This document shows positions 3,186 to 52,949 of a DNA stretch of 64,000 nucleotides, in pieces. This DNA is from Candidatus Moraniibacteriota bacterium. Its GTDB lineage: Bacteria > Patescibacteriota > Minisyncoccia > Moranbacterales > UBA1568. Position 1 is the stretch's first letter; each line of letters starts with the position of its first letter. The translations under genes and the position numbers were made by a program. The stretch is from the NCBI GenBank assembly GCA_016699975.1, contig CP064994.1:981874-1045873 (forward strand). The letters run 5' to 3'. The notes under the pieces are model-generated. The model ran no database searches. It was not told the DNA's origin and worked only from the letters and a program-made list of their open reading frames with translations.

Positions 3186-4280
3186 ATGACTCGCACTCGA
3201 CTCATCATCACCGTACTCGTAGTGATTGCCCTGGGCACATCGGTATTCTGGTTCGCGAAACGCCCTTCCAAAACTCCTGAGGAATCTTCCGTAAAAGATT
3301 CCAATCATGCGACTCCAGAAATCGTCACCGCAAAAGCGAAGGATCTCGCGGCGCGCGTAACCGAAGAGCGTATCCCCGCGATCGTCGCCGCGGAGAATGA
3401 AACAGCGATCGTCGCTCAAACGAGCGGCACCGTCACTTCGGTCTCATTCTCTCTCGGCAAAGCGGTTTCGATCGGAACGCCCCTTGTTCGAATCGCCGAC
3501 CCCGCAAGTTCTGTTGCCTCCAAAAGCGGAATACGTTCCGACACGATTCGCCAAGCCGAAATAGATGCTTCACTCGCTCGGAAATCCTACAAAGAAGCGA
3601 AGCGCCTCGCTGAGAAATACACGAATAAAGAGAGCTACTCCGCCCGAGATGTGGCAAAGCTCCGTCTCGAAAGCGCCGAAGTCGCACTTACAAATGCACT
3701 CGAAAGCTCAATCGTCCGCTCTCCCGCTTCGGGAACGGTGATCGAAAAATCGGTGGGAGTTGGGAGCTCCGTCGCTCCAGGAACCGTCCTCGCAAAAGTC
3801 GCCTCGAAAAGCGAGCCCGTCGTTCGTTTCCATGTTTCAAGCGACACGCTTGCTTCGCTTGAACTCGGACAAGAAATTTCTGTACAAAAAGGGACAGGCG
3901 GAGTAAATGGAAAACGCGCCTCCATTACTGCAATAAGCCGAAACGCTGATCCTTTGACGGGGAAATTCCCCGTTGAGGCGACACTTTCGGGTGCAACATT
4001 TTCACCCGGTACCGTGGTGAGCGTTGTTCTTCCGATTCGCTTGGTCGCAGAGGCAGAAGGGTTTTCGCTTGCACTCCCGCTCTCCGCCGTCACTACCTCT
4101 CAGGAAGGCTCGTTCTTCTTCATCGAAGAAAACGGAAAGGCCACAAAAGTTCCGGTAAAGAATATTTCCGTTTCCGGCGAATCCGCCCTCGTCTCTGCCG
4201 ATATTTCAGACGATGCAAATGTGATCGTTGAGAGCGGCGCAACTCTTGAAGAGGCCCTCCCCGTACGACACAAAGAGTAA
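3186..4280 (+). CDS. Efflux RND transporter periplasmic adaptor subunit (HlyD/MFP family)
   Basis: N-terminal TM anchor, lipoyl-like hairpin, coiled coil, beta-barrel (IVRSPASGTVIEKSVGVGSSVAPGTVLAKV); immediately upstream of the RND pump. Confidence 0.75.
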   Translation: MTRTRLIITVLVVIALGTSVFWFAKRPSKTPEESSVKDSNHATPEIVTAKAKDLAARVTEERIPAIVAAENETAIVAQTSGTVTSVSFSLGKAVSIGTPLVRIADPASSVASKSGIRSDTIRQAEIDASLARKSYKEAKRLAEKYTNKESYSARDVAKLRLESAEVALTNALESSIVRSPASGTVIEKSVGVGSSVAPGTVLAKVASKSEPVVRFHVSSDTLASLELGQEISVQKGTGGVNGKRASITAISRNADPLTGKFPVEATLSGATFSPGTVVSVVLPIRLVAEAEGFSLALPLSAVTTSQEGSFFFIEENGKATKVPVKNISVSGESALVSADISDDANVIVESGATLEEALPVRHKE

Positions 4281-4551: not shown

Positions 4552-7500
4552 ATGCTGCACTTTTCCGAGAACAAAACGTCCGCACAATTCCTGACAACAT
4601 TCGCCATGACTTCCAACAACACCACACCGCCGCGTTCCTCCGATTCCGAATACCTCGAACACCTCGAGTTTGATCCCACGCTTCGAAAAAGCGCTTTCAA
4701 TTTTTTCGTAACGCGCCCTCGGGTCATTCTCCTTCTTATCGCTGCGATTTCGATGTGGGGAATATGGTCTTTTCTTCGACTCCCGCGCGAATCGAATCCG
4801 GAAGTGAAAATTCCCATTGCCGTCGTCGCGACACCCTTCCCGGGCGCGTCGCCCGCAGACGTCGAAGAGCTCGTTACCAAAAAAATTGAAACGAAAATAA
4901 GCGGCCTTTCGGGTATCAAAAAAATAACATCGACGTCTGCCACTTCCCTTTCCGCAGTCACCGTCGAATACGAAGCGAACGAGCCGCTCGATGATGCCAT
5001 TCGCCGCCTTCGCGACGCCGTCTCGGAAGTAAAAAACGAACTTCCCGACAACGCGGAAGATCCTTCCGTCAAAGAGATTTCATTCGATGACCAGCCAATC
5101 CTGACGATCGCCCTCTCCGGAACAGTTTCGGGACTCTCCCTCCGTGATCTCGCCGACACCATACAAGACGAGCTCGAAAAAATTCCCGGTATTCGCGAAG
5201 TGAACATTTCGGGCGGCGACGAACGGGAAATAGAGGTCGCCTATGATCCTGCGAAACTTTCCGCCCTCAACATTTCCGCCGACGAGGCAAACCGTGTCAT
5301 TGCCGCGACGAACCGCGCTATCCCGGGAGGCGCGAAAGACGGTGAACGATTCTCTTACCCGATCCGTACGGACGCTCGCTTCTTTACGGCCGAGGAACTC
5401 GGGAATCTTCCCGTTCGATTCTTTGAAAATGGCGGCACGATTCTCCTCAAAGACATCGCCGACGTACGCGAACACGCGATCAAGCGCACCGTTCTTTCGC
5501 GCCTCTCGGCAAACGGTTCGACCCCGCAAGAATCAATTACGCTCGATGTCGTGAAACGAACCGGCGGTTCCATTATCGAGACCGTCGACGAAGCAAACGC
5601 TACCATGAGTCGTCTCGAAAAAACTTTCCCCACAGGCACCCACCTGGACCGTCACTGTCGACTTCGCGAAAGAAATTCGAAAAAATTTCGACGAGCTCAC
5701 GCGCGACTTTTTCATAACCGTGGGGCTCGTAATGGGCACTCTTCTGCTCATTGTCGGACTCAAAGAAGCAATCATTGCCGGCATGACGATCCCACTCGTT
5801 TTCTTCATCACATTCGGCACGATGCTCCTCTCAGGGATTTCGCTTAACTTCTTATCGCTCTTTTCACTCCTCCTCTCGATGGGACTTTTGGTCGACGACG
5901 CGATCGTCGTCGTTTCGGCGACGAAGCAGTATTTGCGAACCGGAAAATTCACCCCCGAAGAAGCGGTTCTTCTTGTCCTTCGCGATTTCAAGGTTGTCCT
6001 CACCACAACCACTCTCGACCGTTTTTGCATTTCTTCCGCTCCTCCTTGCAACAGGCATCATTGGCGAATTCATCAAATCGATTCCGATCACTGTTTCCGT
6101 GACACTCATCGCTTCGCTCCTCATCGCGCTCATGATCAATCACCCGCTTGCCGCGGCACTCGAGCGCATTCGCTTTACACGAACTTGGTTCTTTCTCTCA
6201 ATCGTGTCGCTCGGCGCACTCGGAATTCTCGGTATCTTTCTCAAAACATTTGCAGGGTACGCGCTTTCTGGTGTTGCCGCTCTTCTTATCGTGCGACTCG
6301 TTTTCTGGTTCTTCATTTCACGGGGTCGCGAAGCGCTCGCCCAAAACAAAGCGCTCGTCGAAGCCGAATGGGCAAGCGACGAACGAATAAAAGCGAGACT
6401 CAAAGCAGCCGGAAACCATGAGGACAAAACCTGGAAGGATCGTCTGATTCACGGCATGATTCATTTTGATCGCATCATTCCTCCGTATGAGCGGCTTTTG
6501 CGAAGCATTCTCGTCAGTACCAAAAGAAAGTGGCTCGTCTTACTGGGAACAGGCGCGCTCTTCGTCGGCTCTGTGCTCCTCCCCGTTTTCGGGATCGTGC
6601 CCACTGAGTTTTTCCCTCCGTCGGATGAAGAGCTCATTTTCGTCAATCTCGAAGCGCCCGTCGGCTTGAAGCTCGAGGAAACTGACAAAATCGTCAAGAA
6701 AATAGAAGACAAGCTTCTCCTCTATCCGGAAGTGATCGACTTTTCGACCGTCGTCGGAAACGCAGGCGTTTCCCAAGACGGCACGGGCGGATCGGGAGGA
6801 AGCGGCACGCATCTCGCAGGCATTGTAATCAAGTTGTCCGACAAACACGATCGCAATCGCACATCGGTCGAACTCGCCGATACGATGCGTGATGATTTTG
6901 CGACGCTCTCGGGAGGCACGATCACGGTTGCGAGTCTCGCAGGCGGTCCGCCATCAGGAGCTTCGTTTGAAGCACGTATCTCCGGTGATGACCTCCGCGA
7001 ACTTGAAAAAATTTCAAATGACCTCAAGAAAATCCTCGCGGATATTCCCGGAACAACGAATATTTCGACATCCCTCAAAAACGCTCCCGCCGATTATACC
7101 TTCTCCCTTGACCGAGCAAAGCTCGCCGCATACGGACTCGATGCAACAAGCGTCGGCTCGACACTCAGGATGGCGATTTCCGGGACGACGGTTACCACCA
7201 TTCTCCGCAACAATACCGAAATCAATGTGAATGCGACCCTCAGTGACGTCGCAGTCCCCACCCTTGCGGATCTCAAAAATATTGAACTCACAAATGCGTC
7301 GGGAAAACGTATTCGCCTGGGAGATATCGCGACGATTGAGCTCAAACCCTCGCTCGACTCCATCACACGAATCGACCAAAAGCGAACGGCTCGCCTCTCG
7401 GCAGGTGTCACCACGGGAACACGACCCAACGAAGTGCTCGCTACCTTCCAAAAAAATGTGCGTGAGACGTACTCGCTTCCCGAGGGATATACACTTTCCT

Positions 7501-9900: not shown

Positions 9901-11688
9901 TTACTTCTTTCGGCTCATTTTGACGCGTTCATTTTCGGTAAGATACTGTTTCCGCAGCCGGACCGATTCCGGTGTAATTTCGAGGTACTCGTCATCAGAC
10001 ATCACTTCAAGACCGCGCTCAATAGAAAGAGTCCACGGCGGCGTGAGCTGGATCGCGTCATCCGAGCCAGATGCGCGCATATTGGTCAGTTGCTTCCCCT
10101 TCGTTGGGTTCACACTCATATCATCGCCCTTCGAGGCGTTCCCGATCACTTGTCCCTCATACACATCGGTCGCCGCGGCGATATAAAGCATCCCGCGATC
10201 CTGCAAATTAAAGAGGGAAAATCCAAGCGCTTTCCCAGTCGCCATCGAAATCATGGAGCCGACACTCCGGTGTTCTATGGTGCCCGCAAAAGGACGAAAT
10301 TCCAAGAACCGCGACGAAAGAATACCCTCGCCCTTCGTATCAACCGTAAACTGTCCTCGGTATCCTAAGAGTCCGCGGGTCGGAATTTCGAAAATGAGTC
10401 GCGAGTCGTTCCCCTGGCCCTGCTTCATATTGGTGAGAATTCCCTTTCGTTTTCCCATGCGTTCAATGACGGCGCCGGAATATTCCGTGGGCACATCAAT
10501 AATCACCTCTTCAAACGGCTCACACTTCGTTCCGTCAATATCCTTCAGAATAACTTTCGGTTGCGACACTTGGCACTCGTACCCTTCGCGGCGCATCGTT
10601 TCGAGGAGAATTGCAATGTGAAGTTCCCCGCGACCCGAGACCAGGAAATGTTCCCCCGAATCGAAATCGACTTTGAGACCGACGTTTATTTCGAGTTCCC
10701 GCCGAAGTCGCTCGCGCAGTTGCTCGCGCGTGACAAATTTTCCTTCCCGCCCAGCAAAAGGCGAATCATTTACGAGAAAGTGAAGCGTGATCGTCGGTTC
10801 ATCGATGGCGATCGACGGCAAGTTTTCCACGTCTTTCGAATGGGCAAGCGTATCACCAATATACACATCGGCGATACCCGCAATCATTGCAATATCCCCG
10901 GCATGCACTTGGGTTACCTCTTCACGACCCATGCCACGGAACGTATACATTTTGGTGACGCGTCCCGAAGCAATTTCTCCGGATGGCTTTTTTGAAACGA
11001 GTGCATCTCCAACCGAGACGGAACCTTCGTACACGCGACAAATCGCGAGGCGTCCCAAAAAATTATCGTATCCCAAATTAAACGGCTGCGCCCGAAATGG
11101 AAGTGCCGTATTATTCCCCGCAGACGGCACCGCTTCGAGAATGGTGTCAAGAAGCGGGGAAAGATTCGACGATTCTTCGTCGAGAGACCGTTTCGCGATC
11201 CCCTGCTTTGCAATTGCATAGACGGTCTTGAATTCAAGCTGTTCATCGGTCGCGCCCAAATCGAGAAACAGTTCGAATACTTGGTCTACCACCCACTCGA
11301 CACGCGCAGCGGGCTTGTCTATTTTATTGACAACTACAATAGGAACAAGACCAAGTTCCAGCGACTTCTTAAGGACGAATCGTGTTTGCGGCATGGGCCC
11401 TTCTTGGGCATCGACAACAAGGAGAACCGAGTCGATCGAGCGCAGCACGCGCTCTACCTCGCTCCCAAAGTCCGCGTGTCCTGGGGTATCAACAATATTG
11501 ATCTTCGTATCCTTGTAGAAAAGCGCGGCGTTCTTCGAATAAATCGTAATACCTCGTTCCCGTTCAAGCGCATTCGAATCCATGCTGACGCCTTCTTCGA
11601 TCATGCCCGTCTCGCGCATGAGAGCATCGGTTAGTGTTGTTTTCCCGTGATCGACGTGTGCGGTAATCGCGATATTTCGGATGTCCAT
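9901..11688 (-). CDS. typA: Translational GTPase TypA/BipA
   Basis: [32 protein letters not shown]; full-length match to BipA architecture. Confidence 0.9.
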
Positions 11689-19864: not shown

Positions 19865-20039
19865 CAATTCTTCTCGCAACTTTCGCAAAAAAGTACCCAA
19901 AGATTTCCAGAGTAGAAAGAAGACCAAGAGCTCTCGGATCGTCGAACAGAGGAAGAGACGGGGAGGGAGAGCATTTTTGGAAACTCGTGATAACGCATTA
20001 AAAGAGAACAAAGTAAAAATAAATCGTAAGAAATAATGT

Positions 20040-20378
20040 ATGTGTACCATCACGTGCTACGACTGCAAGAAAGTGCTCGAAAAAGGAGCGGAGTACATGC
20101 CCTATGAAGTGCAGGGGGAAACACTTGCAAAATGCCGAACGTGTCACGAAGTCAGTCCCGCCCTCACCGGATTTCAGAAGGCAGAAGTGTATACACGCGT
20201 CGTCGGATATATCCGCCCGGTTGAACAGTGGAATAAAGGGAAGCAGCAAGAATACGCCGATCGCATGGAGTATGTGCCAGCGAGCAACAGAATTCGTTCG
20301 AAAATTTTAGAAGTATGGGCCTGGAACAACATCTTTCGAATTCAAATGAGAAAGACGACTCTCTGTCAGATTTTGTAG
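20040..20378 (+). CDS. NrdD C-terminal zinc-ribbon plus glycyl-radical domain encoded as a separate ORF
   Basis: CYDC-x16-CRTC, then YTRVVGYIRPVEQWNKGKQQEYADR (glycyl-radical RVxGY and WNxGK motifs). Confidence 0.6.
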   Translation: MCTITCYDCKKVLEKGAEYMPYEVQGETLAKCRTCHEVSPALTGFQKAEVYTRVVGYIRPVEQWNKGKQQEYADRMEYVPASNRIRSKILEVWAWNNIFRIQMRKTTLCQIL

Positions 20379-20427
20379 AAGTTCCCAGTCACGGTACCCA
20401 AATATCGAACACTTTCTTCGATCAAAG

Positions 20428-21690
20428 GTGAGAAACAGGCAAGCACTCGAAAGAATCGACATAGAAACGAAACTCTCTGAACAGAAGGAACAAAATGAAT
20501 TACAAAAACTCCTTGAAATCGCTCTTTCATCATCAGATACATCCCTACAAAGAACTGGAGCGCGTTTTATTTCATCCCTCGAAGAAGCTGCAAGGAGAGA
20601 GTTTTGTGAAAAACTCAGTAATTCTTTGGTAGAAATGTCTCTCTCATCGGATACAAAAAAACATTTGGTTCTCGCAGAAATTATTCGACACAATTCTGAG
20701 TATATCCCTCTCGAGAAAATAAAAGATAGACTAACCTCTCTTCTCGAGAGAGACCTCGGGAGCAAAGATATTTCAGTACAAGAAGTAGGAGTAAAAATTA
20801 TTGAACTTCTTCCAGAGAGTGCTGATAAAAGGCATTACGAGTCCAAACTGAGGGAATGGTTGCTCCAGAAGATTCTCTCACAAGAGAGTCAGGAACAAAT
20901 CAATGCCGCAAGACTTCTTGGATTTACTTCCCACGAAATTCTTTTTGAGTTAGGAGAAAAAATACTGCATGGAGACAATGAGGAAGCTAAAGAAATTACA
21001 GCAAGATATATAAAGAGACTTGATCCACTCAAATCAGTTCCCCTTCTGCGTCTCACGTTCAATACAAAAAGTTTGCAGCTTAAGAAAATTGGAGCCGAGG
21101 CAACAACCCGACTTTTTCGAACCCATAACAAACAACCCAAAGTTCCGCTATTTATCACGAGTGCAATCACAGAAACCGTCCGCGCTTCTCTTGAATCGGA
21201 TGATCGAAATATTCAGAGAATCGGATCAGAGATGTTGAAAGATGTAACAAACACAAAAGACCTCATAGATCTTGTACGATTGGGAGTGAATTCCAATGAT
21301 AGGACAGTCAAATTGAATGCAATTGCAGCAATACGTTTCATCGACACCAGATTTGATTTCGGAAAAAGAGCAATGTCAGACTTTATAGAACAGGCGCTAC
21401 AATCAGAAGATACAAACATACAAAGAGTCGCTATCACTATATCTCGACACGTCCCGGAACCAGAAAAAGACAAGTGCATGAATCAGGCGTTTGCATTAGT
21501 CAGCAAACTTGTCAACTCAGAAAATAGAGCGAGTCAGAAGAGGGGGACTGAAATGATGTACTATATAAATCACCCAAAAATAGAAACTCTCTTCTCTGAA
21601 AAAATAGAGCCGGATCAGGAGTTGTTGAATATTCTTCTCTTTTCACGATTATACCCAGATCATGAGAGTGCCTCTAAATTTTCAGGGTAA
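20428..21690 (+). CDS. HEAT-repeat (PBS-lyase-like) protein, low-GC
   Basis: Repeated alpha-helical ~30-aa units (NIQRIGSEMLKD..., NIQRVAITISRH...); about 37% GC versus about 50% for the flanks. Confidence 0.5.
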   Translation: MRNRQALERIDIETKLSEQKEQNELQKLLEIALSSSDTSLQRTGARFISSLEEAARREFCEKLSNSLVEMSLSSDTKKHLVLAEIIRHNSEYIPLEKIKDRLTSLLERDLGSKDISVQEVGVKIIELLPESADKRHYESKLREWLLQKILSQESQEQINAARLLGFTSHEILFELGEKILHGDNEEAKEITARYIKRLDPLKSVPLLRLTFNTKSLQLKKIGAEATTRLFRTHNKQPKVPLFITSAITETVRASLESDDRNIQRIGSEMLKDVTNTKDLIDLVRLGVNSNDRTVKLNAIAAIRFIDTRFDFGKRAMSDFIEQALQSEDTNIQRVAITISRHVPEPEKDKCMNQAFALVSKLVNSENRASQKRGTEMMYYINHPKIETLFSEKIEPDQELLNILLFSRLYPDHESASKFSG

Positions 21691-22081
21691 ATCTCCCAAA
21701 AACAGGATCAAGGATGAGTATTCTTCGTGGTGGAACAATCGAGAAAAAATAATTATTCGGCACATAAAAGAAAAATCGTTTCGCGGATGGATGCGTGCAT
21801 ATGAACAACATGATAAATGGTTTGATTCCGGATTTGATTATGTTCCCATTGAACCGATTCAATCATTTGCATTTAGAGAGAATGCCGTTGATGTATATGC
21901 TGGCGTCTTCGATATCGATTTAAAGCATTGGCTCAGCCTATCCGGGCAAAGATTCAAGAATGAACTTCTAGAAATGAGGGAACGGATTACTTCTGTACTC
22001 CAAAGCATGAAGATACGGCATGGCGATCTCCATCTTGGAAATTTTTTCGTTGTTTTTGAAAGAAACGGAGGATCGACCTAA
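21662..22081 (+). CDS. Protein-kinase-like (APH/Kdo-kinase type) fragment, truncated after the catalytic loop
   Basis: HGDLHLGNFFV catalytic-loop motif near the C-terminus, no downstream metal-binding D motif; overlaps the HEAT ORF end by 29 nt in another frame. Confidence 0.35.
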   Translation: MRVPLNFQGKSPKNRIKDEYSSWWNNREKIIIRHIKEKSFRGWMRAYEQHDKWFDSGFDYVPIEPIQSFAFRENAVDVYAGVFDIDLKHWLSLSGQRFKNELLEMRERITSVLQSMKIRHGDLHLGNFFVVFERNGGST

Positions 22082-23938: not shown

Positions 23939-26022
23939 CTACTTCTTACCGCCGCCCATTACTTCCTGCGCCACATTCGAGGGAACTTCCGCATAGTGGC
24001 CAAACTCCATGGAGTAGCTCGCCCGTCCCTGCGACATTGAGCGGAGCGCGGTCGCATAACCGAACATCGCGGCAAGCGGCACTTCTGCGAGAATCTCTTT
24101 TACGCGCGCATTTCCTTCGCCGCGATCGTTCATCTCTTTGATAATACCTCGCTTGGCGTTTACATCTCCGACCGCATCTCCCATAAATGCTTCCGGCGTA
24201 ATCACAACTACTTTCATGATCGGTTCAAGTATGATCGGCTTTGCTTTCCGCATTGCTTCTTTAAACGCCATTGAACCCGCTATTTTGAAGGCCGCCTCAG
24301 AAGAATCGACATCATGGTAGGAACCGTCGTAGACGGTTGCTTTCACATCGACGACCGGATATCCCGCGAGAACGCCGTTTTGCATCGCCTCCTGAATACC
24401 CTTGTCGATTGGCTTGATATATTCTTGCGGAATAACGCCGCCCTTGATTTCATCGATAAATTCGTATCCCTTCCCTGCCTCCTGAGGTTCGAGGCGAATC
24501 CAGCAGTGGCCATATTGCCCGCGTCCGCCCGACTGTTTGATGTATTTCCCTTCGGCTTCGGCAAGCATTTTTACTGTTTCACGATATGCTACCTGCGGGC
24601 GTCCAACATTGACGTCTACCTTAAACTCGCGTCGCATACGATCAACAATGATGTCGAGGTGAAGTTCACCCATACCTGAGAGAATGGTCTGTCCACTCTC
24701 TTCGTCAGTATGAACACGGAAGGTTGGATCTTCTTCGGAGAGTTTTTTGAGCGCGATACCCATTTTTTCCTGATCCGCTTTCGTTTTCGGCTCAACCGCA
24801 ATATCAATAACTGGTTCCGGAAAGACGATCGACTCAAGCACAACAGGATGGTCGGGATCGCAGAGCGTGTCTCCAGTCGTCGTCGCCTTCATTCCAACGA
24901 GCGCGCCGATTCCGCCCGCGGAAAGCTCAGAAATTTCTTCACGATGATTTGCATGAATTTGCAGAATGCGACCAATACGCTCTTTTTCTCCTTTCGTAGA
25001 ATTGAGAACATAAGAGCCCGCTTTCACTGTACCCGAATAGACTCGAAAGAAGGTGAGCTGTCCCACAAACGGATCGGTCGCCACTTTGAAAGCAAGGGCC
25101 GAAAACGGAGCGTTTTCATCAACCTTCACTTCCACCTCAGTATTCGTTTTGGGATCAATTCCCCGGGCCGCCGGAATATCAAGAGGCGACGGGAGGTACG
25201 AAATTACGGCATCAAGAACAAGTTGCACTCCTTTGTTGCGAAGCGCCGTTCCAACAAGTACCGGAATGAGCCGAGTGGAGATAACCGCTTTTCGGAGCGC
25301 CGCCTTTATTTCGGCGGAAGAAATTTCTTCTCCGCTCAAAATTTTTCAATAAGCACGTCGTCCGTTTCGGAAATTTTTTCCACCATGGTATCACGCCAGC
25401 GCTTTGCCGTCTCCAGCATATTTTCCGGTATCTCGATCGGCACAATTTTTTCTCCCATATCTCCCTCGAAGGTATACGCCTTCATCTCTATGAGATCGAT
25501 GATGCCCGAAAAATCAGACCGAACGCCGATCGGATACTGAATCGCAACAGCATTCGGTGTAAGACGATTCCAGATCGAAGAAAGAGCCGCTTCAAAGTCA
25601 GCACCTTCCTTATCTATTTTGTTGATAAAACAAACACGCGGGACACTGTACTTGTCCGCCTGGCGCCACACGGTTTCGGACTGAGGTTCAACCCCTTCCT
25701 TCCCGTCGAAAACGACTACTCCACCATCAAGAACACGAAGCGATCTCTCTACCTCGACTGTAAAATCGACGTGGCCTGGCGTATCGATAATGTTGATCTG
25801 ATGATCCTTCCAATAGCAGGTTGTCGCAGCACTCGTAATCGTAATGCCGCGCTCACGTTCTTGCTCCATCCAGTCCATGGTTGCCTCTCCTTCATGCACC
25901 TCGCCGATTTTATGCGTAATGCCGGTATAGAACAAAACGCGTTCGGTTGTTGTAGTTTTTCCGGCATCGATGTGGGCGATAATGCCGATATTCCGCAGTT
26001 TTTCGAGAGGCGTATGAGTCAT
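23939..26022 (-). CDS. fusA: Elongation factor G; frameshift in an A5/T4 run near 25347-25357
   Basis: [23 protein letters not shown], full EF-G domains II-V. ORFs 25336-26022 and 23939-25339 join as ...[23 protein letters not shown]. Confidence 0.9.
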
Positions 26023-32977: not shown

Positions 32978-33479
32978 AGAGTATCCTCGTTAAAGTTTGC
33001 AAGTGTCGTTTCTGTATTCTGCATTCAGAGTATAAAATTCGAAGCATTTTTACAATCCTCTCTTGATCACTCGCATATTGATTTTTTGCCAACCATACGA
33101 GCGTTCCGGTTTTGCGGTGTGTAATATAGACAAAGTTCCAATGTATTTAATGTATTTATAGGTATATCTGAGCATTTTGCCAGTTTTACTCTTGCCATTT
33201 TCTCCGTGGTTTGCGTCGACATGAGGTGTTCCTGTCTCCGCTCGCAAACATTTCATACTGGCCACTCACATTCGTTTGCGATGACTGCTCGGTCTGGTTT
33301 CGTATTCGCTCGGTAGCTTCGGCGATGTTAGATGTTAGTGGTAGCTCTTTGTGCTTGCCCCACCCTCCCAGTGCGCACACAACAATAATCCCTTATATAC
33401 AAATATACATATACAAAGAAATGGCCCGCACAGTGTTTCCACCATGCAGGCCGATTGTTGAACCTAGGACCGGAACCGA

Positions 33480-34979
33480 TCAGCGGCCGTTGAACTTGCG
33501 TCGCAAATCGTCGAGTGTATATTTCCCGTCGGAGGGATTCGGTAAGGACTTCGGGAGAAGCCCCCAACCATCACCAACCGGTGGGCTCGGAATGCCGGAA
33601 GCGAGACCGCGTGCGCCTTCCCACTCGCGCTCGAGCTCGTCTTGAATTTCCCTGATCCGCTCGAGTTGAGCCTCGGTGAGAGACTCGGTAGGCAGATGAA
33701 CGATCTCGAAGTTGTGCGCCGCCGCGGAGCAAGACTTGCTCCACTTGAGCACCACTTCGCTGGGCAGAATCTGCTCCCAGATCATCTCACATTCGCCGTA
33801 ACGATGCAGTCGACGAGAGTTGAGATCGGTCCATCCGGTATTCGGTCTGTCGCCGCCGTCGGGTCCGATGACCCAACCGTCTCCGGCATTAGTACGACCT
33901 CCACGACGTCGCCAGATGCGAATGTCGGTCGGGAGTCCGAGGGCTACCGCTTCCGTCTTCCGTCGCTGGTACTCCGCTTCGGCTGTGGCTTTCGCCCGCG
34001 CTTTCGCGGCTTCGCGTTCCTTCTGGTCGAGACTTACGCAGAACGCTGCGAGCCCTTCCTCCGAATACGCTTGGCCGTAGTAGTCACCGCTGAGCTTGAC
34101 GCGGTCATCGGTGAACTCGATCGAGAGACTGATCGCTTCCGCTCGCGGCTTGAGGACCTCGAATTTCGGCTGGAACGCTTCACGCGCGAGGCGCTGACGC
34201 TCATGTTCAGTCTTCTGTGATTCGAGTTGCGCGACATGCCGTTCGAAGCTGACGACGTTCTGTTCGTTGTAAAGATGGCTCTGCCACCCCCACTTGAACG
34301 AAACTTCGCCCTGCTCCACAAGCTCGCGCCCGAGAGCCGTCAAACGGATGTTCAGTTCGTCGAGACGAATGCCGAGCCCGGCTTCCTTTGCCGCCTTGCT
34401 CGCGCCCTCGACTTCTTCCTTGGCCCGCGCTTCGCGGTCGGCTTTCGCTTTCCGCAGTGCCGCGCGCTCCTCATCCTGCCTCTTCATCTCCACCTCGAGA
34501 CGGGACTTGTCGGCTTCTGACTCCACGGACTTCTCCGCGTAGTCAATGAAGTACGCGCCACGGCAGTGGTAGGTGCCGGCCTTTTGGAAAGCCGCCTCTA
34601 CCGCCGGAACGAACTTCTCGTCGAGTGGAGTGTCCCACTCGCCACGGGAGAACTTGTTCACCGTCTCCACTTCAGCTGTGGCTTCCCATTTCTCGCCATC
34701 GATATCTTTGACGGTGACGGAAACGATCCGCTCGATCGTTCCATACGAGCGAGCCCCTCTCGACACTCCGGCGTGCACGATGTAGAAACCTTCGTGCACC
34801 GCAACCAGCGCGTGCTGGCCGCAAGCCAAGTGTCCACCGCGACGAACGTACACCGCACGCGGCTTGGTGCCGTCGCGCTTGGTGATGATCGTGGCGGAAC
34901 CGCCACTCGTCATGCCACCACCCGACTCCCAGAGCGCCGGAATACCTCGCTTGGTCGTTTCGATACTGATCTTTCTCAT
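33480..34979 (-). CDS. Hypothetical protein (499 aa), GC-rich (~60%), central coiled coil rich in E/R/A/K
   Basis: Long ORF with AGGAGG SD; composition differs sharply from the flanks; no recognised domain. Confidence 0.45.
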   Translation of the reverse strand: MRKISIETTKRGIPALWESGGGMTSGGSATIITKRDGTKPRAVYVRRGGHLACGQHALVAVHEGFYIVHAGVSRGARSYGTIERIVSVTVKDIDGEKWEATAEVETVNKFSRGEWDTPLDEKFVPAVEAAFQKAGTYHCRGAYFIDYAEKSVESEADKSRLEVEMKRQDEERAALRKAKADREARAKEEVEGASKAAKEAGLGIRLDELNIRLTALGRELVEQGEVSFKWGWQSHLYNEQNVVSFERHVAQLESQKTEHERQRLAREAFQPKFEVLKPRAEAISLSIEFTDDRVKLSGDYYGQAYSEEGLAAFCVSLDQKEREAAKARAKATAEAEYQRRKTEAVALGLPTDIRIWRRRGGRTNAGDGWVIGPDGGDRPNTGWTDLNSRRLHRYGECEMIWEQILPSEVVLKWSKSCSAAAHNFEIVHLPTESLTEAQLERIREIQDELEREWEGARGLASGIPSPPVGDGWGLLPKSLPNPSDGKYTLDDLRRKFNGR

Positions 34980-35184
34980 CTCATCCTCCTATTCGTGCTC
35001 GGGGGTCCGGCTTTGCCGTTCCCATGAGCGTGAATTACCCGCTAGTTCTGGCCGCGAGCTTCGCCATCCAATCTCAATTTACAAAGAGCGTATCCATTTC
35101 GTCCTTTCGGACTCATCGGGTAGGACACACATCCTACGATGGAGGGAGATTTTTTTAACGAAGTTCTCCCAAACTCCGAACCGA

Positions 35185-35709
35185 TTACGACACGAGATGG
35201 CGGTATACCGCCGCCGCGACGGCCGAGTCGTAGAGGGGATTGTGAGTCCCGCCCGCGAACTCGTCGACCAGCAGGTTGTGCTCGGCCGCGAACTTGTCCA
35301 CCGAAGTGGGGTCCGCGCCGGCGGCCTGCAGGTTTCCGCTCACATCGTAGAGCGGATACGGACCGTCCCAGTCACCGATGAGGCCCTTGTCGTGCAGGTC
35401 GCGGAGAATCCGCGCCTCCACAATGTACCCCATGTGCACGACCACATCCGCGCCGTCCTTGTTGGCCTTGTAGAAGGCCGCGAAGTCGGCGAGAAGTGCG
35501 TCGTAAGACTGGTGCGTGACGGGGATGTCGGTGATCTTCGGAAGGACGTTCTCCCGAACCCACCCGTCGGTCACTTCCGTGTCCGGCAAGCGACCGACGA
35601 AGCGACCGATCTCGGCGCCGTTCTCGTCGTAGACGAGCGCGCCGATAGCGAACGCTTGCCCCCACAGCCCGTTTGTTTCCGCATCGAAGCTGAACAGTTT
35701 CTTACTCAT
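35185..35709 (-). CDS. DEDDh-family 3'-5' exonuclease (DnaQ-like), standalone, GC-rich
   Basis: Exo I FSFDAETNGL; Exo III HNPLYDSAVAAAVYRHL; AAGGAG 7 nt upstream of the ATG. Confidence 0.55.
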   Translation of the reverse strand: MSKKLFSFDAETNGLWGQAFAIGALVYDENGAEIGRFVGRLPDTEVTDGWVRENVLPKITDIPVTHQSYDALLADFAAFYKANKDGADVVVHMGYIVEARILRDLHDKGLIGDWDGPYPLYDVSGNLQAAGADPTSVDKFAAEHNLLVDEFAGGTHNPLYDSAVAAAVYRHLVS

Positions 35710-35774
35710 GGTCTTTCTCCTTTTCTGTGCCTCACTAACCTGAGGCGCGGTTTCGGCGTTGTGCCATTTCCTCA

Positions 35775-35819
35775 ATATGAGGACTGTATTCTCCCCCTGG
35801 AAGCGCACAGTCCTCATAT
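35775..35819. promoter_or_regulatory. Perfect 13-bp inverted repeat atatgaggactgt-N19-acagtcctcatat, about 70-110 bp upstream of the exonuclease start
   Basis: Direct reading; candidate operator or 5'-leader hairpin. Confidence 0.4.
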
Positions 35820-35857
35820 TGAAGCGTGTCGTATTTACAAAGAACTTAAAGCTTGAA

Positions 35858-35897
35858 ACAAAAACAGTCTTTCCTGCAAGGAAAGACTGTTTTTTAG
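35858..35897. terminator. Bidirectional intrinsic terminator (acagtctttcc-tgca-aggaaagactgt flanked by A5 and T6)
   Basis: 11-bp perfect stem with U-tracts on both strands. Confidence 0.6.
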
Positions 35898-36477
35898 GCT
35901 CTCCTCTTTTCCCCCCGGGTTGGAACCACCGTTGCTTAGCTCGGTTGGTGGAGGTTCATAGCGCCAATTCGCTCACCTCACTCTTGATAACTGCTATTGA
36001 TTTTTCAAAGCTTTACCCAATAAGTATAGCAGATGCATTGATTTTGTCAATACGTGAGGATATATTTATTTTTTGGAACCCTTCTTTATTTGTTTTATTT
36101 AAGCTGAGGAAAATCAAATAGTGAATCTGGGCAAAACGGTATCCGGGTTAAAAATGTGGAATAATTTCATATTTGTCCACTTCTAAAAAAAACCCCCACC
36201 CGTAGAAAAAAGAAATATTTTACAAGAGATCACAATGCATTCCTGTTAAATTACAGTGCTAAGTGAGTTACACAAGAGATCGTGTTGATTTCTTAATTAA
36301 GAGACTCCCAACTTTCTTTTAAATTTCAAAAATGGGTATTTCCGAACTTCTCCATTACCAAAAATTGTTTTCGAAATTGTAAAGTTTTCTCAATTGCCAA
36401 TACAAGATTTTTAAAATTTAGGAAACCTTAATACCAAGAACGGTAAAAATAACACCTTCCGAATTTACTAAAAAAAA

Positions 36478-36757
36478 TTGGCGGAAAGGGGAGGGATTCG
36501 GTCGGGATAATTGATTCGTCGGCACCCGACCCCGCCTCGCGGTCAGGTGTACTCTTCGCCTGACACGTCTGCTTTCCCCCTCACAAAATGAACATCACTT
36601 TCTCCTCATCCTTGTTCTCCTCTGGCGGTGCGAAATGGTCGTCAGCCATCAAATGACCCTGCCTGCGGTCGGGTGTACTCGCCTGACATCGCTCGAAAGC
36701 ACCTACCCTCACCAAAAGTAGGCAGTTCACTTCTCCTCATCCTGTTCTCCACAATTT
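36478..36757. repeat. Three degenerate ~135-140-bp tandem units, each starting with a copy of the tRNA-Ser 3' end (att-like direct repeats)
   Basis: ttggcggaaaggggagggattcgg (36478-36501) is a 22/23 match to the tRNA-Ser 3' end at 36758-36781. Further shared segments are tctggcggtgcgaaatgg at 36621, cacttctcctcatcc(t)tgttctcc x2 and gcggtc(a/g)ggtgtactc...cctgaca x2. Confidence 0.6.
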
Positions 36758-36847
36758 TGGCGGAAAGGGAGGGATTCGAACCCTCGATCCCCTTTCGGAG
36801 ATACCGCTTTTCGAGAGCGGCGCCTTCAACCACTCGGCCACCTTTCC
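36758..36847 (-). tRNA. tRNA-Ser (anticodon CGA), class II long variable arm, CCA encoded
   Basis: GGAAAGGUGGCCGAGUGGUUGAAGGCGCCGCUCUCGAAAAGCGG...GGGUUCGAAUCCCUCCCUUUCCGCCA; anticodon loop CUCGAAA. Confidence 0.85.
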
Positions 36848-50465: not shown

Positions 50466-52949
50466 TCACCTCCCCGCTCCCTGCACCTGCCACAAGAAGG
50501 AGGAACAGGAAGTATCCCGACACCCACACTTCCAGGCACCGTTTTGTACAGAGCAGGTCATCCCGACAAAGGTAACGGGTGTCTGGGCACTCGTTGTATC
50601 AATATTCGCATGAGTCACCGTGGCAGAGGTGGATCCCTGGCACCAGTTTCCATTCTGTGTGCCACTACAAGCCCCGGTGTACTCAACCCAGCTACTGGTT
50701 CCAGGATTGTACCAATACCCCTTTGTGTACGAGACTCGTGTTTGATTTCCAGGAATCCCTATCGTTGCCTTCAGGGTATGGATGTCACTTGCAGTACACT
50801 CTGCGGCAACAAGAGGCGTATTTGAAAGAAAGAGGTCAAAGGGACTGCCATAGCCTCCGGGGAGAGAAGAAGAAGGAGTGAGAGTCGAGCAGGAAGAGAA
50901 GGTGGGGGTGGAAGAAAGAACCGAAAAAGAAACCGTGAAGTCAGTGGTGTTTGCATTGCCTGCCGTATCCTGACAGCGGATGTGATAGGTGTAGCTTTGT
51001 CCATTACTGAGACCCGAAATGGTTTGTGAGTGGCTGGTGCTGTTTGTGGTTGTGAAGGTGTTCGGGAGAGACGCGTAGGCTTGATCGGTGGTGCCGTACT
51101 TACAGGTTGCGGTTTCATTGGTGGTAAGCGTCATCGTGGTACTTGTGGTTCCAGCGGTGAGGCTTCCTGAGGGAGCGGGGTTGGAGCGAGTCGGCACTGT
51201 TGCGTCAATGGTAAACGTGTCTGTTGCTGCATTGGCATTTGTGACGACATTGCCGGAGCTATCTGTTGCTCGGACATACATGGTATGGGAGCCGTCAGTG
51301 AGGGCGGTATTCATGGTACAGGTAAAGGCTTCCGTTCCTGCATTAAAGGTGTCGTCATTGGGAGTACAGGCATTCCAGGTGCCTGCGGTGCTGTCCATCT
51401 GGTACTGGACAGAAGAGATGGTACTCCCCGCGTCCGTTGCGGAGCCTGTGAGCGCCGGGGTGTTGTCTGTGTTGGGATCAGGAGAGAGTGCGGTCAGGGT
51501 GAGGACAGGAGCCGTCGTATCTGCCGGGTTCGCTACTGAAAAAGAAACCGTGAAGTCAGTGGTGTTTGCATTGCCTGCCGTATCCTGACAGCGGATGTGA
51601 TAGGTGTAGCTTTGTCCATTACTGAGACCCGAAATGGTTTGTGAGTGGCTGGTGCTGTTTGTGGTTGTGAAGGTGTTCGGGAGAGACGCGTAGGCTTGAT
51701 CGGTGGTGCCATACTTACAGGTTGCGGTTTCATTGGTAGTAAGCGTCATCGTGGTACTTGTGGTTCCAGCGGTGAGGCTTCCTGAGGGAGCGGGGTTGGA
51801 GCGAACGGGAGGGGTGGTGTCGGAAGAGGAGGCACCTATGGTAACGGGGTAGCCAGAAGCATTCGGAGTGCCGGAAGCATCGATGACGTAGAGGTAGGCT
51901 GGTCCCGCCGAGAGGTGTCCGGGACGGACCGTGGCAGAGACACTCCCCGTAGCCCAAGCAGTAGGAATTTGAATTTCGCAGGCATTTCGACCACTCCAAG
52001 TCGCGCCGTCGCAGAGCTCCACTCGCTGCGGAGTACTGTCCATATAGATTTCATCGATATCGATAGTGGCAGGGTCATTCGCACAAAAGTCATAGTAGGC
52101 GCCTCCCATAGTAAACATCGAAATATCTTCTGCGCTTGTACGCATCACTTTGTTACGAAGGAGGATTTCTTCTTTCTGCTTGAGTACCGGGCGGTAAAAC
52201 ACACCATCCCACTGGCCATTGGCAACGCCCGGAGCAGATTGAACAAGATAATTTTCGAGACGATCCCATTCATTTTCAGTATCTCTTCCTCCATGACTGA
52301 AATATTCATCCGGAGGCGACTGACTCACATGGAGACGCCAGTTGGCGCTCGGTTCGCAAGAACTATTGTAGGCACTCGAGAAATAGAAGCGGTCACTCCA
52401 ATCACTCGTGTAGCCGATCAGCGCCTTTGATTGTCGGGGCCAGGTAGTTCCAAGTCGCTTCATTCTCCAGTAAAAAGAAATGTACAATTTTGATCCAGTC
52501 ACATACTGAGTATACGGAACAGCAAGATTGAGTCCCCAATACGTGTTATCGGTAAATGAGGCTCGCGCATGATTGCTCGAACCGGGAAGAGGAGAACTAT
52601 TGTTGAAGACGATCGACTTTGAACTGTAGGCACCGCCCCCATCCATGCTCCAGGAATTGTAGGAAGAAAGATTCCCTTGGTGAATAAGAGGAGTGGTGCC
52701 TCCCGACCAGTTTGCCACCACTCCCCCATTTGAAACGGTGTCGAACGTATCCCACAACATCGGTCCCGCATGAGCCTTCGTGTTAAAACCGCTTCCCGAA
52801 ACAGTAATAGTATTTCCGGAAGAAACTGTTCCCGAGACCGAAGAAATGGAAGGCGCGGCAAGGGTCCCTTGAGCCACGAAGAAACTTCCCGCAAGAAATA
52901 AAACTCCCGCGAATACCTTCGCGGAAATGATATGCCGATGTGATCGCAT
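50466..52949 (-). CDS. Secreted surface protein: signal peptide, jelly-roll/lectin-like N-domain, two near-identical FN3/Ig-like repeats, C-terminal Cys-rich domain
   Basis: Signal peptide MRSHRHIISAKVFAGVLFLAGSFFVAQG; the 90-aa unit PxRSNPAPSGSLTAGTTSTTMTLTTNETATCKYGTTDQAYASLPNTF...YTYHIRCQDTAGNANTTDFTVSFSV occurs twice. Confidence 0.55.
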   Translation of the reverse strand: MRSHRHIISAKVFAGVLFLAGSFFVAQGTLAAPSISSVSGTVSSGNTITVSGSGFNTKAHAGPMLWDTFDTVSNGGVVANWSGGTTPLIHQGNLSSYNSWSMDGGGAYSSKSIVFNNSSPLPGSSNHARASFTDNTYWGLNLAVPYTQYVTGSKLYISFYWRMKRLGTTWPRQSKALIGYTSDWSDRFYFSSAYNSSCEPSANWRLHVSQSPPDEYFSHGGRDTENEWDRLENYLVQSAPGVANGQWDGVFYRPVLKQKEEILLRNKVMRTSAEDISMFTMGGAYYDFCANDPATIDIDEIYMDSTPQRVELCDGATWSGRNACEIQIPTAWATGSVSATVRPGHLSAGPAYLYVIDASGTPNASGYPVTIGASSSDTTPPVRSNPAPSGSLTAGTTSTTMTLTTNETATCKYGTTDQAYASLPNTFTTTNSTSHSQTISGLSNGQSYTYHIRCQDTAGNANTTDFTVSFSVANPADTTAPVLTLTALSPDPNTDNTPALTGSATDAGSTISSVQYQMDSTAGTWNACTPNDDTFNAGTEAFTCTMNTALTDGSHTMYVRATDSSGNVVTNANAATDTFTIDATVPTRSNPAPSGSLTAGTTSTTMTLTTNETATCKYGTTDQAYASLPNTFTTTNSTSHSQTISGLSNGQSYTYHIRCQDTAGNANTTDFTVSFSVLSSTPTFSSCSTLTPSSSLPGGYGSPFDLFLSNTPLVAAECTASDIHTLKATIGIPGNQTRVSYTKGYWYNPGTSSWVEYTGACSGTQNGNWCQGSTSATVTHANIDTTSAQTPVTFVGMTCSVQNGAWKCGCRDTSCSSFLWQVQGAGR
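50922..51806. repeat. Intragenic ~265-bp near-perfect direct duplication (50922-51190 and 51541-51806)
   Basis: Only 2-3 mismatches between the copies (for example gccgtactt versus gccatactt). Confidence 0.75.

Follow-up and report, generated by a model that had tools for sequence, protein, structure and literature searches.

A predicted hammerhead ribozyme between two GC-rich genes near tRNA-Ser in a Candidatus Moraniibacteriota genome

Results

Layout of the locus

We analyzed a stretch of 64,000 nucleotides, referred to here as the window, from contig CP064994.1 of Candidatus Moraniibacteriota bacterium (assembly GCA_016699975.1, positions 981,874 to 1,045,873 of the forward strand) and, within it, a block of high guanine-plus-cytosine (GC) content that lies close to a tRNA-Ser gene. 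The features of the locus are collected in Table 1. The two reading frames of the block that had been called in an initial annotation, made from the sequence alone, are real: one encodes an orphan protein of 499 residues and the other a 174-residue exonuclease of the DEDDh type. The block reads as a single operon on the minus strand, extending from approximately 36050 to 33423 and probably co-transcribed. A promoter-like site is followed in order by a structured leader, the exonuclease gene, a hammerhead ribozyme, a leader motif, the gene for the 499-residue protein, and a terminator. The initial annotation overlooked the hammerhead between the genes and the operon layout, as well as the lack of a conserved pairing of the two genes in other genomes. 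The genes that flank the block in the window are housekeeping genes.

Table 1. Coordinates and strands of the features at the locus, numbered from the first letter of the window
Feature	Position	Strand	Basis and remarks
Intrinsic-terminator-like hairpin	33423..33452	-	13 pairs and T run; operon end; GC drops here
499-residue orphan protein	33480..34979	-	Beta domain at either terminus, three long helices between them
Leader motif of the 499-residue protein gene	34985..35062	-	Hairpin, UUCAC-GCYC, variable hairpin, GRGC-ACGAA, Shine-Dalgarno
Type III hammerhead ribozyme	35090..35145	-	RF00008 35.4 bits, E 2.5e-5; own covariance model R1 78.5 bits
174-residue DEDDh 3'-5' exonuclease, RNase T/Orn/ExoX-like fold	35185..35709	-	Motifs and structure model
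Perfect long hairpin in leader	35772..35822	-	16-bp exact core, 19 bp in fold
16-bp hairpin with U run	35860..35894	-	Begins 10 nt after aptamer; suits riboswitch expression platform by position
SAM-I-like aptamer (candidate only)	35904..35993	-	RF00162 36.2 bits vs gathering score 44.4, E 3.9e-6 (1.4 kb searched)
Sigma-70-like promoter	36023..36050	-	TTGACA, 16 nt, TG-n-TATACT; 11/12 consensus positions and extended -10; consensus match only
AT-rich gene-free spacer	36053..36477		425 bp; GC 0.31-0.39; lower edge 36052/36053 is the strain breakpoint
Copy of last 22 nt of tRNA-Ser	36478..36500	-	22/23, one gap; then run of 8 T on minus strand
Two degenerate tandem units with copy	36478-36623; 36624-36757		146 nt and 134 nt; two short common blocks, 16 nt at 94% and ~20 nt
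tRNA-Ser(CGA)	36758..36847	-	ARAGORN; Rfam tRNA 61.9 bits

The contrast in composition, noticed earlier by eye, withstands measurement. In a sliding profile, the GC content is 0.58–0.62 in every 500-nt interval from 33500 to 35749 (0.60 over 33.5–35.75 kb), against 0.40–0.52 in the flanks and 0.31–0.39 in the spacer at 35.75–36.5 kb, and a value of 0.58 or more is found nowhere else in the window. The GC content at third codon positions (GC3) is 0.83 in the exonuclease gene and 0.70 in the gene for the 499-residue protein, compared to 0.45–0.55 in nine neighboring genes. The tetranucleotide distance of 33.5–35.5 kb is likewise that of an outlier (z = 3.7, rank 2 in the window). The block, described initially as foreign, thus departs from its host in GC, in GC3 and in tetranucleotide usage.

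A predicted hammerhead ribozyme separates the two genes

The intergenic element is a type III hammerhead, comprised of the successive segments CCUCCAUC, GUAGGA-ugugug-UCCUAC, CCGAUGAG, UCC-gaaa-GGA, CGAAA and UGGA. It has the hammerhead topology, namely a three-way junction in which loops close stems I and II, while stem III is open. The core reads CCGAUGA, the U4C variant of the conserved CUGANGA; every other core position considered is present, including GAAA, the A15.1-U16.1 pair and a base other than G at position 17. The predicted cleavage site is 3' of C35138, at the 35138/35137 bond of the minus strand.

A covariance model of the hammerhead (R1), built from three instances, has matches in other genomes, whose loci are given here by L numbers: L001, L003, L008, L016, L048–51, L054, L056, L057 and, in three copies, L061. 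Such related instances score 33.4–41.5 bits with RF00008. Among 12 instances, the core is CUGAUGA in seven and CCGAUGA in five, the window included. The alignment of 12 sequences pairs in 99.4% of its cells and has compensatory changes in 12 of the 15 pairs. Its covariation score is 0.82, compared to 0.19 in shuffles (none of 500 reaches the observed value) and to at most 0.12 with slid partners; the alignment was fitted to a covariance model, which favors the structure, and the margin over these controls is large.

The array in L061, a Taylorbacteria contig, holds three hammerheads of the same family, at 1632–1687, 3540–3586 and 5620–5672. They lie within a series of co-directional small genes, which include an STIV_B116-like gene, an acetyltransferase gene and the exonuclease gene, and which are followed by a helix-turn-helix (HTH) plus SocA_Panacea gene.

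The exonuclease

The shorter protein is a DEDDh exonuclease by its motifs and by its modeled fold, as had been proposed for a standalone enzyme. The residues D9, E11, D104, H156 and D161 are invariant across 23 sequences. The start is best placed at MSKK, which is preceded by AAAAGGAG. The structure model has a predicted local distance difference test (pLDDT) value of 92, and Foldseek comparison to the PDB returns Orn, RNase T, ExoX and the epsilon subunit of DNA polymerase III (Pol III) at the top, with probability 1.0, template-modeling (TM) scores of 0.6–0.67 and approximately 16% identity. The first of these matches is Orn bound to pGG. The protein is thus like RNase T, Orn, ExoX and Pol III epsilon in its fold (TM of approximately 0.65) and in the five catalytic residues D, E, D, H and D, and is unlike them in its low sequence identity to the solved structures and in the lack of a match in Pfam or of a relevant one in NCBIfam. 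A weak match to phrog_2259, annotated "Rnase H" (E 9e-4), was also seen. Relatives of the exonuclease fall into 887 protein clusters. Its identity to a protein of the temperate phage phiFN37, whose gene lies in the early region, is 38.5% (E 2e-23).

In L060 (1638–5549), the exonuclease gene directly follows dnaE, for the Pol III alpha subunit. This gene order hints that, in some Patescibacteria, members of this DEDDh family may act in proofreading.

The 499-residue protein and its leader motif

The larger protein, initially described as hypothetical, is an orphan with long helices. Searches of Pfam, PHROGs, PADLOC, NCBIfam and PDB sequences returned nothing, the BFVD gave no match at E ≤ 0.001, and the family was absent from a scan of IMG/VR. 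Over its N-terminal 144 residues, the protein has 34–36% identity to hypothetical proteins from large phages of Fusobacterium (E 2e-12).

The leader motif directly upstream of this gene has no match in Rfam. A covariance model of it (R2) has matches solely upstream of the 499-residue protein gene family, and the motif also precedes the gene in L001, L003, L006–L011 and L048. One of its pairs changes from C-G to U-A in four of nine sequences. A second copy of the motif is seen in L007 (60–153), before another gene.

The upstream leader of the operon

Since both genes are on the minus strand, the 16-bp hairpin and the AT-rich spacer lie upstream of the operon, with the hairpin in its leader. The initial annotation had read this hairpin as a bidirectional terminator that follows the genes; the hairpin itself is real, and its assigned position relative to the genes is not. 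The AT-rich character of the gene-free spacer was described correctly. The fold of the leader has a z-score of −5.1. The perfect hairpin in the leader overlaps an upstream ATG that is used by some gene callers, from which a 210-residue call results.

A candidate aptamer that resembles the S-adenosylmethionine (SAM) I riboswitch lies between the promoter-like site and the 16-bp hairpin. Its P2 and P3 are good, P1 is weak (5 of 8 pairs) and P4 is shortened. It is like RF00162 in having the core segments of P2, P3 and the junctions, and in the strong terminator hairpin directly after it. It is unlike RF00162 in its sub-threshold score, in the weak P1 and truncated P4, and in the lack of conservation at other exonuclease loci: no counterpart was found upstream of the exonuclease gene in L052, L054 and L056, where homology to the window begins just 13 nt before the start codon. 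The SAM-I class usually precedes genes of sulfur and methionine metabolism, and an exonuclease gene with an orphan gene is not of that type. We consider the aptamer a candidate only, because it is sub-threshold, unique to this lineage and placed before genes unusual for the class. An Rfam scan of related pyruvate kinase loci returned only tRNAs, hence there is no hint in these relatives of a displaced SAM-regulated gene.

At the other end of the operon, nucleotide homology to L048 stops at 33415, near the terminator.

Both gene families are patchy and change neighbors

The taxonomic affiliation of both proteins was examined, as had been suggested. Named matches are nearly all from Patescibacteria (Parcubacteria, Taylorbacteria, Campbellbacteria, Yonathbacteria and Saccharibacteria); most matches are nameless, and a few bear other labels of metagenome-assembled genomes. 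The 499-residue protein family has 109 protein clusters, and identities in both families are 50–90%. A pattern scan of limited sensitivity confirmed the family of the larger protein in 12 loci among 185,579 species genomes. None of 17 other loci of this family has the exonuclease gene within 8 kb, and the two genes adjoin solely in the window and in near-identical strains.

High GC content accompanies the genes from host to host. The gene for the 499-residue protein is a GC island in 13 of 14 distinct loci, with GC of 0.60–0.71 and GC3 of 0.67–0.92, against flanks of 0.41–0.57. The same enrichment is seen for the exonuclease gene in L052, L054, L059, L060 and L061. The hosts of the two families have 31–57% GC. 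The exception is L012, in which the larger gene has a GC3 of 0.26 in a host of 31% GC; hence, the 499-residue protein can do without GC-rich codons.

The neighborhoods of both genes change in nearly every genome. Where two GC-rich genes abut, the hammerhead often sits at their junction. On the exonuclease side, the exonuclease gene is joined to the gene for the 499-residue protein (window) or to genes for proteins of 237, 252 and 412 residues. For the larger gene, the junctions are with a preceding gene for a protein of 266 residues, of 133 residues or of the Csx3 type (L008), or with a following gene for a 290-residue protein. The hammerhead-adjacent proteins of 237, 252, 266, 290 and 133 residues have no mutual similarity in BLASTP at E 1e-3 or better and no Pfam domain. 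A DHH motif suspected by eye in the 266-residue protein was unsupported by Pfam. DNA homology to the window spans 35722–35093 for units of the exonuclease type and 35174–33415 for units of the other type, which places the breakpoints within 30 nt of the ribozyme on both sides.

Several of these loci have ties to mobile elements. In L003, a tyrosine integrase lies approximately 3 kb away. In L016, a large serine recombinase and then tRNA-Ser(cga) come after the gene for the 499-residue protein. The gene in L016 (7995–9429), which stands between an AAA_33 kinase gene and the recombinase, is broken into three reading frames, thus it is there a pseudogene or an assembly error. In L001, the gene, a hammerhead and the gene for the 290-residue protein lie between the second and third copies of a tRNA-Leu 3' end, with no integrase inside. 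This locus contains two full copies of tRNA-Leu(taa), at 4137–4241 and 10820–10924 (a 105-nt repeat, 95% identical), and a 3'-end copy at 7110–7134. The copies mark off two segments in tandem, 2.9 and 3.7 kb long, and the second has only these two genes and the hammerhead.

A separate observation concerns L054 (4021–4284), where a sub-threshold T-box leader (65.5 vs 93 bits) is found directly before tRNA-His and not before an aminoacyl-tRNA synthetase gene.

The duplicated tRNA-Ser end does not enclose the block

The tRNA-Ser(CGA) gene is genuine, by both ARAGORN and Rfam, and a pyruvate kinase gene followed by tRNA-Ser is seen in 23 of 30 related loci. The copy of its 3' end that had been noted at 22 of 23 positions is also genuine (E 0.006), and is the sole significant one in the window. 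The three tandem units that were thought to begin with such copies are in fact two, the second of which begins with TGGCGG only. Tandem Repeats Finder detected no array in 35.5–37.2 kb. The 3' end of the tRNA (36758–36778) and its copy enclose 280 bp only, and the block lies outside, beyond the distal copy and the 425-bp spacer. The initial proposal that the duplicated tRNA end bounds the block is therefore not borne out. A possible third copy beyond the block, at 33531–33548 (13 nt exact, 16/18 when extended), lies inside the reading frame of the 499-residue protein and is at chance level. The absence of an integrase, remarked upon at the outset, holds: no recombinase domain was found in the reading frames scanned in 26.6–40.6 kb, and the window has no significant tblastn match (best E 0.11) to any of three queries, namely a serine recombinase, a tyrosine integrase and an IS66 transposase.

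The 280-bp segment contains no Rfam family at the gathering score, only sub-threshold matches that extend from the tRNA. A structured RNA or an array of pseudo-tRNAs was considered for it and rejected: its folding z-score is −0.28, no better than shuffled sequence, hence the segment is not a structured RNA. The best reading of the segment is a scar of an insertion at the 3' end of the tRNA, by now decayed and separate from the block. In relatives with 53–88% identity in pyruvate kinase, nothing downstream of the tRNA is in common with the window. In L035 (2986–3027), L037 (4824–4865) and L038 (11740–11789), the first 43 nt of tRNA-Ser recur 375–400 nt upstream of the real gene, between it and pyruvate kinase. 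This copy has the appearance of a further small insertion at this tRNA, on the 5' side.

Near-identical strains part from the window at 36052

The comparison to relatives for presence or absence of the block, which had been advised, found no empty site. Two contigs from other samples (L062 and L063) are 99.2–99.6% identical to the window from 36052 down to their ends, at 24116 and 29784, respectively, and cover the block, lepB, ndk and genes beyond. The match breaks off precisely at 36052, which leaves just 2 nt ahead of the −35 hexamer of the promoter-like site. Beyond this point, an IS66-family insertion-sequence (IS) element and then genes for a 517-residue protein and an HTH protein are found in place of tRNA-Ser. 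The block is therefore stably tied to the lepB side, and the tRNA side varies within the species.

The IS66-family element (L062, 2177–3709) contains one transposase gene only; its terminal inverted repeats are GTAACTCCTCACTGACCCCC, and the target duplication is TTTTCGG. The element is inserted beside the operon promoter, and the flank upstream of it, with the 517-residue and HTH genes, differs from the window even when the element is removed.

Discussion

We lean towards reading the block as a horizontally acquired accessory operon that is split by a ribozyme, and not as a remnant delimited by attachment (att) sites at tRNA-Ser. The analysis supports a foreign origin for the block and gives no support to att sites at this tRNA as its limits. 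Both genes would come from a pool of GC-rich accessory genes, patchy through the Patescibacteria, that move on integrative elements. The stretch 3' of tRNA-Ser would be prone to rearrangement, and the duplication of the tRNA end would record a small, separate insertion.

The most likely role of the hammerhead is to split the operon transcript. A single transcript would span the exonuclease gene and the gene for the 499-residue protein, and the ribozyme would cleave it after C35138. The upstream exonuclease mRNA would be left with a 2',3'-cyclic phosphate end. The downstream mRNA would start with a 5'-OH and would keep, besides its own leader motif, the body of the folded ribozyme. As cleavage would leave distinct ends and leaders on the two mRNAs, the two cistrons could differ in stability and in translation.

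Such an arrangement matches a pattern described for prophages, here in another phylum. Hammerheads in prophages flank single genes or short gene blocks, near integrases and with genes of varying identity, and their proposed role is the cutting of a long transcript to single-gene mRNAs (Perreault et al. 2011, PMC3088659). The present family is like those ribozymes in having co-directional genes of genome-varying identity around it, often with integrases near, and in the occurrence of three ribozymes in the array of L061. It is unlike them in that the hosts are Patescibacteria, that the window has one ribozyme and is devoid of prophage genes and of an integrase, that the cargo genes are GC-rich compared to nearly every host examined, and that U4C is found in 5 of 12 cores. 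A full-text search of the literature found no paper that ties hammerheads to Patescibacteria. A resemblance to integron cassettes is countered by the absence from the window of significant similarity to a tyrosine integrase and by the nature of the junction element, which has an RNA catalytic core and covariation and is not a repeat of the attC type.

That an island was integrated site-specifically at tRNA-Ser, with the duplicated tRNA 3' end as its boundary and with subsequent loss of the integrase, we regard as unlikely. The proximity of the block to the tRNA 3' end (approximately 1 kb), the genuine copy of that end and the cessation of synteny with relatives right after the tRNA would all be expected of such an island, as would the positions of the gene between a serine recombinase and tRNA-Ser(cga) in L016 and between tRNA-Leu end repeats in L001. 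Together with the foreign composition and the variable downstream content among relatives, these are the points in which the locus is like the known genomic islands at tRNA 3' ends. It is unlike them in that the repeats do not bracket the block and that no recombinase remnant is present in the window. A further significant copy of the tRNA end is also lacking. What argues most directly against it is that the 99%-identical strains keep the block and lepB and do not conserve the tRNA-side junction, as they lack everything on the tRNA-Ser side past 36052. An older outer island with a decayed distal repeat is a possible variant of this explanation.

Several observations weigh against the horizontally acquired, ribozyme-split operon itself. 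The ribozyme of the window misses the Rfam gathering score (35.4 vs 48.5 bits), and the U4C change in its core lowers activity in vitro. This change is a known natural variant, which in spite of the lower activity in vitro supports viroid infectivity (PMC3088659). The hammerhead was not detected in 10 of 16 loci with the gene for the 499-residue protein, nor in three of seven close exonuclease loci. No empty site was found among the relatives compared, and acquisition is accordingly deduced from composition and patchy distribution. High GC3 is kept across homologues that have diverged to 65–75% DNA identity. Recent transfer alone does not explain this persistence, for which selection or biased gene conversion could instead be responsible. 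Lastly, the exonuclease gene is found near dnaB and recR in L052 and L054, and these neighborhoods, with that of dnaE in L060, make a housekeeping role conceivable.

The last two points lead to the proposal that both genes are native and vertically inherited, their family-wide high GC arising from selection on the mRNA or from biased gene conversion, and the exonuclease perhaps being a housekeeping enzyme of the RNase T/Orn kind or a proofreader. Protein identities of 50–90% across classes and the housekeeping flanks in the window would fit it as well. We grant it somewhat less credence again than the island at tRNA-Ser, in view of the patchy distribution of the 499-residue protein family (with the sensitivity of the scan as stated), the change of neighborhood in nearly every genome, the recombinases, IS element and tRNA repeats nearby in several genomes, the low GC3 in L012, and the phage homologues of both proteins.

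A module of defense or counter-defense, in which the nuclease would degrade signaling oligonucleotides or invading nucleic acid and the 499-residue protein would be a sensor or effector, is improbable: the Orn–pGG complex as top structural match, the Csx3 homologue ahead of the hammerhead and the larger gene in L008 (Csx3 has ring-nuclease activity), the HTH plus SocA_Panacea gene in L061 and the early-region phage homologue of the exonuclease are suggestive, yet neither protein has a PADLOC match, the genes are not a conserved pair, and all functional links are by neighborhood.

Beyond the ribozyme-split accessory operon, a bolder reading, which we hold to be a long shot, is that genes are shuffled across the Patescibacteria by a system whose joints lie at the hammerhead; GC-rich accessory genes would be exchanged as modules of one gene each, at breakpoints that hug the ribozyme. 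Exchange might proceed by recombination at the ribozyme DNA, or via an RNA intermediate freed by self-cleavage. The uniformly high GC would then follow from frequent recombination or from a mobile reservoir that the genes share, and the 499-residue protein, with its own leader RNA, might be cargo of a new class or might act in mobility.

The Patescibacteria have small genomes, with few recognized mobile elements or ribozymes. Against this background, we describe a family of hammerheads, predicted to be self-cleaving, that lie between accessory genes. These genes are foreign in composition in almost all hosts examined, their partner genes are shuffled, and the breakpoints fall at the ribozyme. 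One of them encodes a well-folded protein of 499 residues, without resemblance to solved or viral structures and with a conserved leader RNA of its own. Should the ribozyme prove active, the locus would offer a simple natural case for the effect of self-cleavage between bacterial cistrons. The locus also illustrates that a duplicated tRNA end beside a foreign block need not bound that block.

Two other regions of the window are tetranucleotide outliers. One, at 50500–52500, has z = 3.9 and a GC of 0.51–0.56, and the other, at 20000–22000, is AT-rich, with z = 2.8 and a GC of 0.39–0.44.

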